Shown: positions 12,961 to 52,880, counted from the stretch's first letter. The stretch is DNA of 64,000 nucleotides from Verrucomicrobiia bacterium (GCA_036510395.1 DATCDZ010000152.1:4325-68324); one strand, 5' to 3'. Notes: generated from the sequence alone by a model not told the origin. Made by a program: numbers and translations.

Positions 12961-14034
12961 TTATGCGGCAACGGCTTTCGCCGCTGGTTCGGGGTTGTGG
13001 CTTCCAATAATCACCTTCTGTTGCCGCTCGTATTCGCTCAAGGAAGGCATTTCCACCGGCGCTTTGCGGGAATAGGCCCGCGTCATGGCCTTGCTGTTGT
13101 GGCCAAGATTCACCTGGGCATACCGTTCGGGATAGCCCGCCGTTTTTGCCCGTTCTGCCCACGCGTAACGGTAGCTGTGCAGCGAGACGCCTTTGATGCC
13201 AAGTCCATCGCAGCGTTGTTTGAACTCCGTGGCGCGGTCACCAGAGCGCACGGTTCGCATATATGGAAACAAGGGGCCGCTCCCCGGCAAGTCGCGCAGG
13301 ATTTCCGCCATGTCTTCATCAAAACGCATGATGGCAATCGAGCCGGTCTTCTGGCGCGCATAGCTGATGACGTGGTGTTCCCAATCAACGTCCTCGGCGT
13401 TCAAGCCCGCCAGATCGGATTGCGATGCGCCCAAGTGCCACGCCAGTTTGTAGAACGCCTTGCGTTCGGGATTGTTCTCGCGGGCGACGATGGCCAGATG
13501 TTCCGCCAGCGTGATGCCGCGCTTCTCTTTGAACTCGACGGCGGGCCACTGGCGTTTCGGCACCAGCGGCCACGGCAGCCAGTTCATGTCCACGCAGAAA
13601 TTGTGCAACCGCCGGAGATAAACATTCGTCGAGACGGTTCCCATTTGCAGGACTTTCAGAATCGCTTCGCCCTTGCTTTCGATGATGACCTGCGGCAAGA
13701 GCATCGCCAGTGCCTTGTCCTTCGCGGCGGTTTTCCAGCGATGTTGATTCGCTCCCTGCTTGGTGCCAATCAACGACTCAATGGCGTTCTGCCATGTCCG
13801 CGTGGTCAAGCCCGTGTCCGAACCGGCCAGATACGCCTTGGCGATTTGCAGGTTAAGAACGGGCTGGCGTTCGGAGTTGTTCTTGGCCGCGACAACCTGC
13901 TTGGCATCGTCCTCATTGGCCGTGCCGAGACTGGTGCGCTTGCCGGTGCTGGTGTCCACGCAATAAAACTTATTGCCCCGGATACCACGACGAATTAAGC
14001 GATAACGTGTTTTCATAGTATTACGCAATCGCAA
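12961..14034 (-). CDS. int: Tyrosine recombinase / phage-type integrase
   Basis: C-terminal catalytic region: GVSLHSYRYAWAERA...NLGHNSKAMTRAYSR. The likely true start is ATG 14016 (MKTRYRLIRRG), since 14034 is a TTG. It lies 155 nt from the tRNA-Cys 3' end. Confidence 0.9.
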   Translation of the reverse strand: MRLRNTMKTRYRLIRRGIRGNKFYCVDTSTGKRTSLGTANEDDAKQVVAAKNNSERQPVLNLQIAKAYLAGSDTGLTTRTWQNAIESLIGTKQGANQHRWKTAAKDKALAMLLPQVIIESKGEAILKVLQMGTVSTNVYLRRLHNFCVDMNWLPWPLVPKRQWPAVEFKEKRGITLAEHLAIVARENNPERKAFYKLAWHLGASQSDLAGLNAEDVDWEHHVISYARQKTGSIAIMRFDEDMAEILRDLPGSGPLFPYMRTVRSGDRATEFKQRCDGLGIKGVSLHSYRYAWAERAKTAGYPERYAQVNLGHNSKAMTRAYSRKAPVEMPSLSEYERQQKVIIGSHNPEPAAKAVAA

Positions 14035-14188: not shown

Positions 14189-14263
14189 TGGAGGCGGGAG
14201 TCGGAATCGAACCGACGAATGCAGCTTTTGCAGAGCCGTGCCTTACCACTTGGCTACCCCGCC
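14189..14263 (-). tRNA. tRNA-Cys (anticodon GCA), CCA encoded
   Basis: The reverse complement GGCGGGGTAGCCAAGTGGTAAGGCACGGCTCTGCAAAAGCTGCATTCGTCGGTTCGATTCCGACTCCCGCCTCCA folds by hand into a cloverleaf. It has a 7-bp acceptor stem, anticodon loop CUGCAAA and T-arm GTCGG-TTCGATT-CCGAC. Confidence 0.93.
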
Positions 14264-14328: not shown

Positions 14329-15456
14329 TCAACCGCCAGAACCCAGTTCATGCCGCCGCCGCCAAAGTTCCTGCGGCTTGATGATGCCGCACGGCGTAAT
14401 AATTCCGGTGATCAATTCAGCCGGCGTCACGTCGAAACCCGGATTGCACGCCCTGCTCGATGGATTTGCCACACGCACATACCGGCGTAAATTCTGACTT
14501 CGGACTTTGGACTTCGGACTTTCAACAATGCCCCACGCGCCGAGAACTTCGCTTTCGCTTCGCTCTTCAATTGGAATGTCGAAACCCTGTTTTAGATTCC
14601 AGTCAATTGTTGAAAGCGGGATGGCTACATAAAACGGAATTTTGTGCCGCGCGGCCAGAACCGCCTTTGTATAAGTGCCGATTTTGTTGGTGACTTCGCC
14701 GGTGCGGCCGAGCGTGCGGTCGCTGCCGACGATGACCAAGTCAATCTCACCGCGTTGCATCAAATGTCCGGCGGCGTTGTCAGCAATGATTTGATGTGAA
14801 ATTTTTTGCTGCGCGAGTTCCCAAGCCGTCAAAGTTGCGCCTTGCGAACGCGGACGGGTTTCGTCGCAGAAGACATGGAACTTTTTGCCCTGCGCCTGCG
14901 CGGCATACATCGGCGCGATGGCGGTGCCGATGTCCACGAACGCCAGCCAGCCGGCGTTGCAATGCGTGAGAATCTTCATGCCGTTGCGGATCAGCTTCGC
15001 GCCGTGTTTGCCAATTTCTTCGCAATGACGGACATCTTCGTTCGCAAATTCCTCGGCGGCGGCAAGCGCGAGCGATTTCTTTTCTTCAACGGTTTTGCCG
15101 CGCGCCATTTCGCGGCGAACGTCGTTCATTGCGTTCACGGGATCAACCGCCGTCGGCCGTGCGGCTTTCAAAGTTTGAAAAACAATTTCGACGTGCGCTG
15201 AAAATTTCTTCAAATCATTTCCGTGAAAAGCCAGCGCGCCCTGCGCGAGGCCGTAAGCCGCCGTCGCGCCGATCGCACCTGCGCCGCGCACAATCATGTC
15301 GCGGATTGCCGCCGCCGTTTCCTTGAAACTTTTCGCGGGGACAATTTTGAATTCGTGCGGCAGCAATCTTTGTTCGATGAACAAAACGGAATTGCGCGCC
15401 CGGTCAAATGTGACAGTGCGGAAATGCTGCGTGCGTCCGTGGACGGTGATGTTCAT
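14329..15456 (-). CDS. mtnA: S-methyl-5-thioribose-1-phosphate isomerase (eIF-2B alpha/beta/delta family)
   Basis: FIEQRLLPHEF...IRDMIVRGAGAIGATAAYG...VGSDRTLGRTGEVTNKIGTY...NPGFDVTPAELITGIIT. Confidence 0.85.
   Translation of the reverse strand: MNITVHGRTQHFRTVTFDRARNSVLFIEQRLLPHEFKIVPAKSFKETAAAIRDMIVRGAGAIGATAAYGLAQGALAFHGNDLKKFSAHVEIVFQTLKAARPTAVDPVNAMNDVRREMARGKTVEEKKSLALAAAEEFANEDVRHCEEIGKHGAKLIRNGMKILTHCNAGWLAFVDIGTAIAPMYAAQAQGKKFHVFCDETRPRSQGATLTAWELAQQKISHQIIADNAAGHLMQRGEIDLVIVGSDRTLGRTGEVTNKIGTYTKAVLAARHKIPFYVAIPLSTIDWNLKQGFDIPIEERSESEVLGAWGIVESPKSKVRSQNLRRYVRVANPSSRACNPGFDVTPAELITGIITPCGIIKPQELWRRRHELGSGG
14496..14522. repeat. Heptanucleotide tandem array (AGTCCRA type) in frame inside mtnA
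   Basis: GACTTCGGACTTTGGACTTCGGACTTT is translated as ESPKSKVRSQ on the gene strand. The same heptamer family forms the intergenic hairpin at 29542-29629. Confidence 0.7.
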
Positions 15457-20121: not shown

Positions 20122-21003
20122 GTGCAAGATTTGATCGCCAAAGCCGGAACGCTCCTCGAAGCGCTGCCGTATATCCAAAAGTTCAGCGGCGCGACCTTCG
20201 TCGTCAAATACGGCGGCAGTTTCATGGACTCGCCCGACGCCGAAATCCGCAACGGCGTCGCGCGCGACATCGTGTTTCTCGAAGCCGTCGAAATCAATCC
20301 CGTCATCGTCCACGGCGGCGGCAAGGCGATCACGCGCGCGATGGAACAGGCCGGTTTAATCGCGAATTTTATTCAAGGCCAGCGCGTCACCGACGAAGCC
20401 ACGGCAAAAATAGTGGACGACGTTTTGTCGCGCGAAATCAATCCAGACATCGTCGCAACAATCAATTCACTCGGCGGCGCGGCCGTCGGATTTTCCGGCG
20501 CGGACATTTTCAAATGCAAAAAATTGCTGCTTCACGACAGGGATAATCCCAGCAAAAAAATTGACATCGGCTACGTAGGCGAAGTCATCGAAGTCAACGT
20601 CGCGCCGCTCAAGGAATCCATCTGGTGCGGCCACACGCCCGTCATCAGCCCGACCGCGCGCGGCGAGGACGGAAAGATTTACAACTGCAACGCCGACATC
20701 GCCGCCGCGATGTGCGCGATCGCGCTCAACGCGAAACGGCTCGTTTTCTTGAGCGACGTTCCAGGACTGATGCGCGACCCGAAAAATGCTTCCACCGTCA
20801 TCGCGCATTTGCAAACAAATGAAGTGGACGGTCTGAAAAAATCCGGCGTGATTGACAAGGGCATGATTCCGAAAGTGGACAGCGCCGTCGCCGCCATCAA
20901 ATCCGGCGTGGAAAAAGTTTCCTTCGTAGACGGTTGCGTGCCGCATTCCGTCCTGCTGGAGATTTTCACGGACAAGGGAAACGGGACGGAAATTGTTTTG
21001 TGA
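20122..21003 (+). CDS. argB: Acetylglutamate kinase
   Basis: LPYIQKFSGATFVVKYGGSFM...VIVHGGGKAI...YNCNADIAAA. Confidence 0.9.
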   Translation: MQDLIAKAGTLLEALPYIQKFSGATFVVKYGGSFMDSPDAEIRNGVARDIVFLEAVEINPVIVHGGGKAITRAMEQAGLIANFIQGQRVTDEATAKIVDDVLSREINPDIVATINSLGGAAVGFSGADIFKCKKLLLHDRDNPSKKIDIGYVGEVIEVNVAPLKESIWCGHTPVISPTARGEDGKIYNCNADIAAAMCAIALNAKRLVFLSDVPGLMRDPKNASTVIAHLQTNEVDGLKKSGVIDKGMIPKVDSAVAAIKSGVEKVSFVDGCVPHSVLLEIFTDKGNGTEIVL

Positions 21004-21024
21004 TTTGCGATTTACGATTTACGA
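21004..21024. repeat. Heptanucleotide tandem array TTTRCGA x3 (argB-argD spacer)
   Basis: TTTGCGA TTTACGA TTTACGA. Confidence 0.7.
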
Positions 21025-21040
21025 TTCACCCGAATTGCAG

Positions 21041-29541: not shown

Positions 29542-29629
29542 AGTCCAAAGTCCGAAGTCCGAAGTCCAAAGTCAAGCCAGCCGCGCCGTTGAATTTAGGC
29601 TTTGGACTTTGGGCCTTGGACTTTAGACT
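29542..29629. repeat. Long hairpin built of heptanucleotide arrays (AGTCCRA x5 facing its complement)
   Basis: AGTCCAA AGTCCGA AGTCCGA AGTCCAA AGTCAAG ... loop ... GGCTTTGGACTTTGGGCCTTGGACTTTAGACT, between the divergent lspA and NYN genes. Confidence 0.8.
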
Positions 29630-45126: not shown

Positions 45127-45429
45127 TTAATCGCCCAGCAATTTTTTCAAATGCTCGCGCGCAGCGGTCTCGCGTTTGTTCGTCTCCGATTTTGGCGGCC
45201 AGTTGCGGCGGATGAAATCAAAATACTCGCAGAAATTTCCAGCGGCCTTTTCCAGAACCGGCTCCGCGCGACGCTCGCGGCATTGCTGCGCGATGCGCGG
45301 ATCGTAATGCGTGCAATTCAGGCAGACGCGCAGATCCGCGCGGCATTTCATGCACGTCTCGCCGCGCCCCGGCTGGCCGCCCAGCGTCCAGGGTTCGCCG
45401 CAATTGTGGCAATGACGGGTCATTTGCAT
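45127..45429 (-). CDS. Small Cys-rich zinc-ribbon protein
   Basis: CHNCGEPW...CMKCRADLRVCLNCTHY...QCRE...FCEYF. Confidence 0.55.
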   Translation of the reverse strand: MQMTRHCHNCGEPWTLGGQPGRGETCMKCRADLRVCLNCTHYDPRIAQQCRERRAEPVLEKAAGNFCEYFDFIRRNWPPKSETNKRETAAREHLKKLLGD

Positions 45430-45456
45430 TTACGATTTGTGATTTACGATTTACGA
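45423..45456. repeat. Heptanucleotide tandem array TTTRYGA (about 5 units)
   Basis: TTTGCA TTTACGA TTTGTGA TTTACGA TTTACGA. It overlaps the start codon region of 45127-45429. Confidence 0.7.
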
Positions 45457-45492
45457 TTGTGCCTGGAAAAGCAATCTCATCGTGCATTAAGA

Positions 45493-50050: not shown

Positions 50051-50052
50051 AA

Positions 50053-50154
50053 TTTTTGATTTACAATTTATGATTTATGATTTGGCAAAAGTCGCCCGCG
50101 CTTGGAAAAAATCATCAATCGTAAATCATCAATCGTAAATCATCAATCGTAAAT
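50053..50154. repeat. Long hairpin of heptamer arrays (TTTNNRA x5 facing 3 perfect 14-nt units AATCATCAATCGTA)
   Basis: Left arm TTTTTGA TTTACAA TTTATGA TTTATGA TTTGGCA. The right arm is 50110-50151, three exact 14-mers that read TTTACGA/TTGATGA on the other strand. Confidence 0.85.
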
Positions 50155-52623: not shown

Positions 52624-52762
52624 ACTAAAAATTTGTTCCTTTAACGCCGCCCTGCGAGGTGGCAAAGGAAAATATGAACGCGAAATTGCCAAAGACGAAC
52701 TGTCTCGTGAGAGTAGTTTGTCTTTATTTTTTCCACCCGCCCGTGCCGGCGACGACGAAAAC

Positions 52763-52880
52763 CTCCAAGCTCCAACCTCCAAGCTCCAGAGAATCATCAA
52801 ATTCCAATCACCAACAATTGAAGGTTGATGCTTGGAGCTTCTCTGGATGTTGGGTGTTGGATGTTGGAGCTTCTTATTTT
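52763..52880 (+). promoter_or_regulatory. Structured pyrR leader: heptamer arrays with alternative pairings, a UCCAGAGA motif and a U-tract (candidate PyrR attenuator)
   Basis: CTCCAAG CTCCAAC CTCCAAG CTCCAGA GAAUC... faces ...CTTGGAGCTTCTCTGG and GGATGTT GGGTGTT GGATGTT GGAGCTT CTTATTTTT, 5 nt before ATG 52885. Confidence 0.35.

Follow-up and report, generated by a model that had tools for sequence, protein, structure and literature searches.

How a repeat with a seven-nucleotide unit can persist inside a working housekeeping gene is the question raised by a 64,000-nucleotide stretch of a Verrucomicrobiia bacterium genome (GCA_036510395.1, DATCDZ010000152.1:4325-68324; hereafter the window), in which a heptanucleotide array lies within mtnA, the gene for S-methyl-5-thioribose-1-phosphate isomerase. 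The gene occupies 14329..15456 on the minus strand as an intact frame of 375 amino acids, identified by its open reading frame (ORF), by TIGR00512, by PDB chains and by an AlphaFold2 (AF2) model. We consider it moderately probable that the array is a tolerated in-frame microsatellite at the permissive tip of a β-hairpin, inherited, evolving in place in a concerted manner, filtered for reading frame and for the hydrophilicity of its peptide, and decaying in this genome. Such a microsatellite would be a passenger in a working mtnA, adding a flexible hydrophilic loop rich in K, S, P, N and Q.

The array (14493..14522, minus strand, 4.3 units) reads on the gene strand, after a leading AA, AGTCCGA (14520-14514), AGTCCAA (14513-14507), AGTCCGA (14506-14500) and AGTCAGA (14499-14493). 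These four units in three variants form a decayed copy with a 14-nt super-period, and Tandem Repeats Finder (TRF) reports 14492-14521 as period 7 (4.3 copies, 86% matches) and 14496-14522 as period 14 (100% matches). With at least three head-to-tail copies, beyond chance expectation, the array belongs among bacterial simple sequence repeats (SSRs). The two-unit pattern AGTCCRAAGTCCRA, with at most one mismatch, has 7 matches in the 64 kb, all of them at the mtnA array or at an intergenic pair of arrays (29542-29629); 0.05 matches are expected in shuffled sequence, and 7 were reached in 0 of 100 shuffles. The codons GAA AGT CCG AAG TCC AAA GTC CGA AGT CAG yield ESPKSKVRSQ, residues 312-321 of 375. 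Since 7 does not divide evenly by 3, successive units pass through all three reading frames, which gives the peptide a period of 7 residues (21 nt). The initial annotation had described this in-frame array and its peptide, and the sequence, the ORF, TRF and the shuffles all agree; it had placed four AGTCCRA units at 14496-14522, and four there are, but the fourth (AGTCAGA) carries one mismatch and extends 3 nt past that start. Its core observation stands, in that a heptamer of the type found in intergenic arrays is read in frame as protein within mtnA, and its overall interpretation is supported in part.

The host frame encodes MtnA, within the TIGR00512/PF01008 family context: it scores 380.7 bits against NCBIfam TIGR00512 (cut-off 279) and 407 bits against PRK05720 (cut-off 271), matches PDB chains 1t9k (E = 2e-74) and 2yrf (E = 8.5e-62), and is identical to a protein on record from a Verrucomicrobiae metagenome-assembled genome (MAG). 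A first AF2 model from a shallow alignment of close homologues was discarded (predicted local distance difference test (pLDDT) 45.6); a diverse 108-sequence alignment fixed the problem and gave a model with pLDDT 95.9 and a predicted template-modelling score (pTM) of 0.93. Foldseek superposes this model on 1t9k (Thermotoga) and 2yrf (Bacillus subtilis) with template-modelling (TM) scores of 0.94-0.96 and a root-mean-square deviation (rmsd) of ~2 Å, as an eIF2B-like two-domain fold. Residues C166 (THCNAG) and D246 (GSDR), which we take to correspond to the catalytic Cys160 and Asp240 of B. subtilis, are invariant in close relatives and at least 90% conserved in the 108-sequence alignment. In the model, strands 306-310 and 324-328 flank a loop at 311-323, and the block 311-320 (mean pLDDT 67) is the sole weak internal stretch. 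The hypervariable loop segment, codons I310-R325 (IVESPKSKVRSQNLRR; 14482..14529, minus strand), was delimited from alignments of 120 proteins and 80 genome loci together with the model, and is 16 amino acids long in the window, 18 in most relatives and 8 in relatives without an array. The modelled array peptide falls in the loop of the β-hairpin exactly at the turn, at a surface tip predicted to tolerate extra residues.

Not all of the extra length at this tip comes from the repeat. HMMER opened a 17-residue gap in the array stretch against Thermotoga MtnA, and a full-library HMMER comparison separates diverse MtnA into two loop types: a short type, as in Bacillus and Thermotoga, and a type with an 8-9-residue β-hairpin extension, G[ILV]xxxxGxxxxVR[IL]AP, found in many unrelated clusters. 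The extended type also occurs in array-less relatives (INSRGQRE) and in the nearest outgroup cluster (IGNHGKRE), and the unrelated MtnA clusters P0157, P0168 and P0270 bear odd inserts at the same hairpin tip. Judged from these alignments, about half of the ~17 extra residues relative to Thermotoga and Bacillus is an older hairpin extension, the array adding 8 here and 10 in most relatives. A segment about 15 residues longer than in Bacillus MtnA had been reported initially; the extra length is real, but the array gives only 8 residues of it. The core of the initial annotation also withstands the refuting test that it set itself: distant orthologues are without the segment, and close relatives are strongly heptamer-periodic at the same site.

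The relatives are 80 species-level genomes, MAGs of Limisphaerales or Verrucomicrobia subdivision 3 (L001-L080), with loop lengths tallied over 81 species-level sequences, and the 120 closest MtnA proteins (83-100% identity). Several of the records (L001, L004, L014, L019, L022, L025, L028, L073 and L078) are titled uncultured Bifidobacteriaceae or Bifidobacterium, yet their mtnA is 77-87% identical to that of Verrucomicrobiae, and they are probably mislabelled. About one quarter of the 120 closest proteins are without the array segment; the remainder hold heptamer-decoding peptides (SPKSKVQSPK, NSKFKIQNSK, NPKSEIRNPK, NPQSAIRNPQ, TPHSALRTPH, EKRKAESGKRK and KQMEDGRWKM). Loops are 18 amino acids long in 45 of the 81 sequences, 8 amino acids long and array-less in 13, and 11 amino acids long in 4, and in the 18-residue loops a heptamer array of ~4.3 units occupies the same codons and keeps the same register. 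Across species the mtnA site shows at least 13 distinct units, with the consensus A-[AG]-T-C-C-[AG]-A. The register of the array relative to the codons is the same in 33 of 36 clean arrays, which was reached in 0 of 10,000 random-phase simulations. Such a conserved register argues for one origin of the mtnA array, and the array would descend from one present in the ancestor of many Limisphaerales.

Between near relatives the arrays differ unit by unit in the same way. Single steps connect the units of close relatives into a network (AGTCCAA, AGTCCGA, AGTCCGC, AATCCGC, AATCCGA and ACTCCGC). L036, with (AAGTCCG)x4, and L049, with (CAATCCG)x4, are 93% identical outside the loop, and the same 2 positions differ in each of the four units; L011 (AAATCCG) and L061 (AAGGCTG), 92.5% identical outside the loop, have 3 differences per unit. 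A point change in one unit may be copied to its neighbours by intra-array slippage or gene conversion, and through such copying species would come to differ by whole-array, concerted unit changes. Array length does not change among relatives at 85-100% identity; at the species level, a clean 21-nt (3-unit) gap separates L017 from its sister L059, and alleles shorter by 21 nt occur in L017, L058, L031 and L043. Selection on the reading frame would pass only unchanged length or such 3-unit changes, and selection on the peptide would keep the A-rich strand as the coding strand. The A-rich strand of the mtnA arrays is always the coding one (39% A, 18% T), and the array loops have a markedly hydrophilic make-up (K 20%, S 18%, P 12%, N 11%).

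The same comparison yields a decay series. Among the loops of at least 15 amino acids (n = 60), a perfect array of at least 28 nt is present in 16, one of 21-27 nt in 7 and one of 14-20 nt in 15, and the array is decayed in 22, the window among them. Five relatives at 85-91% DNA identity keep 375 amino acids and show point changes only; within this group, L081 has a perfect (AGTCCAA)x4 at the codons of the window array. The initial annotation took the repeat to have expanded within the coding region, a view these relatives contradict: they have the same length, L081 is still perfect, and the array of the window is inherited and decaying. G variants spaced by 14 nt are common to the window and L085, which would fit copying in two-unit steps followed by decay. 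Where homogenisation lapses, ordinary substitutions would erode the array, and the window would be in that state. In this genome the array is, we infer, harmless and functionally ordinary, a decaying repeat in a floppy loop.

In a coding region, adding or removing 7-nt units preserves the frame only in steps of 3 units, and mtnA might accordingly be pictured as a phase-variable contingency locus in which gain and loss of units switch the gene off and on; off/on cycles would also homogenise the units. The model for such a switch is neuO of the Escherichia coli K1 phage CUS-3, with a 5'-AAGACTC-3' variable-number tandem repeat (VNTR) of 3-53 repeats at its 5' end, polymorphic among strains and out of frame in 66% of genomes (PMC13001214). 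The likeness is close in that both are 7-nt repeats read in all three frames, with a 7-residue peptide period and the frame kept at multiples of three (PMC13001214). Unlike the neuO switch, however, the mtnA array has only ~4 copies, stands in an internal loop at codons 312-321 of 375 rather than near the 5' end of what is a housekeeping gene, is stable in length and gives no sign of an off-frame allele. With tblastn, query residue 1 through 369-375 was matched in each of the 80 species loci, the protein match being unbroken in 80/80; in 11 re-examined loci the match is a single in-frame stretch, and the 9 closest proteins are all 375 amino acids long. We therefore regard phase variation as highly improbable.

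The peptide could instead be what is selected, the 10-residue hydrophilic loop being an adaptive protein feature (for example for solubility or as an interaction surface) and the repeat only its means of origin. The retention of the 18-residue length in 45/81 species and the strongly hydrophilic composition would suit this idea. The sequence of the loop, however, is hypervariable and set by the DNA period, the loop is lost or shortened in at least 17 species, model confidence is low there, and the same peptides occur in unrelated enzymes; we find an adaptive loop improbable.

Heptamer arrays are not confined to mtnA, and five intergenic loci with such arrays lie in the window. An inverted pair of AGTCCRA arrays at 29542..29629 (arms 29542-29573 and 29600-29629), between two divergent start codons, forms a long hairpin when folded as RNA (-48.3 kcal/mol, z = -7.2); that the unit of the mtnA array also builds this hairpin had been noted from the outset, and the fold and the confinement of all 7 AGTCCRAAGTCCRA matches to the two sites bear it out. 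A GATTTRC array of ~4 units (20997..21026) ends ~14 nt before an ATG, and a GATTTAC/GATTTGT array of 4.4 units (45428..45458) lies between divergent starts. A second inverted pair (50052..50154) consists of ATTTATG x4.6 at 50052-50083 and, with a perfect 14-nt super-period, AAATCAT/CAATCGT x6.6 at 50109-50154, and an imperfect inverted pair (52760..52868) consists of CTCCAAS at 52760-52788 and TGGATGT/TGGAGCT at 52844-52868. Perfect 14-nt super-periods are seen in several of these other heptamer loci of the window, and the arms at 52760 and 52844 have diverged from each other, each still internally periodic. All five loci stand shortly upstream of start codons, a proximity that is indecisive for a promoter association because longest-ORF gene calls over-extend starts.

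This placement would be expected if the array were kept in mtnA as a nucleic-acid signal (a protein-binding site, a DNA structure or an RNA element) doing the same job as the intergenic arrays, and so would the perfection of arrays at the DNA level while the unit changes and a copy number, ~4.3, equal to that of the intergenic arrays. A signal of this kind is difficult to reconcile with the absence of the array from 13 species and from outgroups, with its decay in 22/60 long loops, and with the occurrence of intergenic arrays between convergent genes. The mtnA array has no inverted partner (second hairpin arm) within ~200 nt and no surrounding palindromic structure with terminal inverted repeats, and Rfam matches in the window are to tRNA only, with no known RNA family at the array. 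A tRNA-Cys gene is present regardless of the array, so the array is not needed as its promoter. A retained signal thus seems an improbable explanation.

Across 1.17 Mb of loci, TRF calls period 7 more often than any other (105 rows), and a strict scan found 54 period-7 arrays versus 0-3 for periods 5, 6 and 8-11. Pairs of arrays across loci match within 1 mismatch in 6.9% of cases, versus 2.1% for composition-matched random heptamers; for same-locus pairs the figure is 4/34. Compared with composition-matched random heptamers, mtnA units find matches in other arrays ~10 times more often, and such matches are not clearly commoner in their own genome; several apparent same-unit matches in the loci are single chance 14-mers. 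Since cross-genome matches are about as frequent as same-locus ones, the units appear to be drawn from a restricted, clade-wide repertoire. Seeding of the mtnA array from the 29542 hairpin was considered and is unsupported, the units matching the arrays of other genomes about as often as those of their own locus.

An orthologous intergenic array upstream of mtnA (TTTCGGG, 7.6 units) is a few point changes apart between L021 (9451-9500) and L040 (9355-9404). The mtnA arrays of these two genomes are completely different (GACACTC versus AATCCGC), and turnover is therefore site-dependent, with a stable intergenic array beside different mtnA arrays.

Arrays are also translated in other genes. Pfam-confirmed hosts among the relatives are an MnmC-like methyltransferase, glycogen debranching enzyme (L017:334-4746(-), two separate arrays), an SNF2 helicase (L066:2305-5463(-), where heptamer arrays form an inverted pair that is read in frame between motifs I and Ia), UvrC (L018:3756-5444(+), two adjacent arrays in the RNase H-like endonuclease domain), a ProA-like dehydrogenase and Zn-ADH. 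The MnmC-like protein (PF05430; L070:1872-2816(-), L004:465-1409(-) and L050:6240-7118(-), also L005, L071, L039, L061, L045 and L049) has one hypervariable loop, between DFPAWL and PHAI, that holds three units in three species and in-frame palindromic inserts in others, these resembling repetitive extragenic palindromic (REP) sequences or miniature transposable elements with inverted repeats (MITEs).

A metagenome scan for (AGTCCAA)3, whose seed requires 3 units, returned at least 120 contigs (L086-L205), placing the AGTCCAA family in at least 120 different contexts. Among the matches listed (126 arrays), copy number is 3.x in 13, 4.x in 75, 5.x in 21, 6.x in 7 and at least 7 in 10, and the 4.x mode persists when the 3.x class is assumed to be under-detected ~two-fold. 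A small number of arrays extend to 10-18 units, and some change unit variant along their length (for example in L127 and L193). About 40% of the arrays among the matches listed lie in long ORFs, 44 in sense and 4 in antisense orientation, and the Pfam-confirmed hosts among these matches are LeuRS, PyrD, PheS, AroE, XseA, homoserine dehydrogenase, PurL, LarC and CstA. In LeuRS (L136:1464-4199(+) and L198:3274-6327(-)) the array stands at two different sites upstream of the VDLYIGGxEH motif, one unit family having apparently entered an essential gene twice, independently. In two contigs a complete inverted pair of AGTCCAA arrays is translated in frame (SPKSKVQSP...PWTLDFGLWT), in a Ser/Thr protein kinase (L109:1862-3847, minus strand), between HRDLKPANILL and ITDFGLAK, and in a penicillin amidase (L146:3-1487, minus strand). 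The PheS host (L152:2250-3317(-)) belongs to Patescibacteria. Its loop, DTFWL...LLRTHTS, is hypervariable in 120 homologues (P0271-P0390), with 0 to ~30 extra residues and heptamer-coded peptides of several units from the same unit families as in Verrucomicrobiota.

Dispersal of this sort is the ground for the main rival explanation, a selfish mini-element akin to the Rickettsia palindromic elements (RPEs), in which pre-formed arrays, single or as inverted pairs, would be copied to new sites, land repeatedly at the mtnA tip and survive if in frame. RPEs are ~150 bp long and palindromic, belong to fixed families with a conserved peptide, and are the precedent for in-frame repeats in housekeeping genes (PMC10969869). 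Like RPEs and intragenic MITEs, the arrays are short repeated DNA in frame in unrelated housekeeping genes at fold-compatible positions (PMC10969869), and the AGTCCAA family is dispersed, as such elements are, at many unrelated sites that include housekeeping ORFs: the two LeuRS sites, PyrD, PheS, AroE, XseA, PurL, LarC and CstA are among its contexts, at least 120 in number. The whole inverted pairs in frame in the protein kinase, the penicillin amidase and the SNF2 helicase point the same way, as do the MnmC-like loop with its three units in three species and palindromic inserts in others, the patchy distribution at mtnA, and sister species that differ in both units and flanks.

The inserts nevertheless differ from RPEs in being ~30 nt long (five times shorter), tandem and without defined ends; the mtnA copy is not palindromic, and species differ in their unit. 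No conserved positions, fixed ends or target-site duplications are evident in the flanks of 120 AGTCCAA arrays, and the phases at which arrays start and end vary; a mobile element with fixed ends was rejected on these grounds. At mtnA itself, the arrays share one register and one position, and a single mutational step separates the units of close relatives. Flanks of up to 21 kb showed no linked mobility gene, and the integrase near tRNA-Cys in the window is absent in L081 and L082. We consider repeated landing of an RPE-like element unlikely.

The reading of an inherited, concertedly evolving microsatellite also meets difficulties. Outside the repeat, sister species diverge much more strongly in the flanks of the loop (9 nt and 15 nt) than in the remainder of the gene, which looks more like segment replacement than drift, and homogenising four units without a change of length is hard by simple slippage, as 7-nt and 14-nt steps shift the frame. 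The outgroup-rooted mtnA tree needs 10 changes between short and long loops (bootstrap range 8-16) and the neighbour-joining (NJ) tree of two neighbouring genes needs 7 (range 5-8), both trees being star-like and disagreeing in detail; the presence and absence of the array are scattered on both, and the array-less 8-residue allele resembles the outgroup. A single origin thus needs several exact losses, allele exchange or wrong trees. By flank identity most array-less species group together, though not cleanly. The outgroup-like allele nested among array-bearing species argues for several gains, exact losses or exchange, in conflict with the conserved register. As a speculation, the Asn-Ser codons of the array-less allele, AAT TCA, match the AATTCAA unit, and parallel expansion from such a native seed would fix the phase. 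Outside mtnA, arrays have a median of 4.3 units and 30 nt; with the four-unit preference found in non-coding DNA too, a frame filter cannot explain the four units. The same unit families stand at more than 100 unrelated sites and in another phylum, and these recurrent units hint at copying between sites or at a sequence-specific generator.

The four-unit preference of the non-coding copies and the sharing of units across phyla are explained by none of the readings considered here. Rather tentatively, and as something we think less than likely, these mini-arrays of ~four units (~30 nt, single or in inverted pairs) could represent dispersed DNA of a separate class that is actively generated, at the least in Verrucomicrobiota and Patescibacteria, being made or renewed by dedicated 7-nt-periodic copying and colonising permissive enzyme loops in frame much as RPEs do; the mtnA array would then be one footprint of this class and not the product of ordinary slippage.

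Known heptamer systems offer partial parallels. Heptameric SSRs are over-represented in bacteria, and a preference for four units in Xanthomonas and Nostoc has been attributed to G-quadruplexes (Rehm et al. 2015, PMC4692102). The cyanobacterial short tandemly repeated repetitive (STRR) sequences and the GGGNATC repeats of Xanthomonas and Nostoc resemble the present arrays as dispersed tandem 7-nt units, mostly non-coding and often near ORF ends (PMC4692102). The units described here (AGTCCAA, AATTCAA and AATCCGA among them), by contrast with the GGGNATC type, are A-rich, have no G-tract on either strand and cannot form a G-quadruplex, so the published explanation of four units does not apply to them. 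They also differ from STRR and GGGNATC repeats in their taxa (Verrucomicrobiota and Patescibacteria), in the many copies that are in frame, and in the variation of the unit from species to species at a single orthologous site. Among the intergenic loci, 29542-29629, 50052-50154 and 52760-52868 resemble REP sequences and REPINs as inverted pairs that fold into long hairpins, but their arms are internally 7-nt periodic and each homogenises alone, as the diverged 52760 and 52844 arms illustrate.

Beyond mtnA on the same strand of the window lie the tRNA-Cys gene (14189-14263, minus strand) and, directly beyond it, a tyrosine recombinase (12961-14034, minus strand; PF00589, E = 1e-9). An integrase follows tRNA-Cys in L083 and L084 too, in L083 with a TrwC-like relaxase after it, whereas L081 and L082 have a CHASE2-guanylate cyclase gene at that position and no integrase; from this gene order, tRNA-Cys looks like an integration site for a variable element. 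It lies downstream of mtnA on the same strand in nearly all scanned species, with or without an array, and is inverted in L024. The array as an internal promoter for tRNA-Cys was rejected, because the tRNA follows mtnA in array-less species too.

The interest of the locus lies in the comparative picture and not in this genome's copy. Full-text searches of the literature library used here found no prior description of these arrays or of their tell-tale peptides, and the widespread in-frame settling of heptamer mini-repeats in housekeeping genes is apparently undescribed. At least 13 units at one codon position, with many perfect four-unit arrays, make mtnA an unusually clean natural record of concerted microsatellite evolution under frame constraint. 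A four-unit preference without G-quadruplexes undercuts the only published explanation and reopens the matter of what determines the size of bacterial heptamer repeats. In-frame arrays could, in addition, introduce indels that confuse alignments and phylogenies. The same arrays occur in frame in aminoacyl-tRNA synthetases, DNA-repair proteins and biosynthetic enzymes of two phyla that are far apart. Loops inserted by repeats may therefore commonly underlie differences in protein length and stretches of low complexity in uncultured bacteria, and may have been overlooked in that role.

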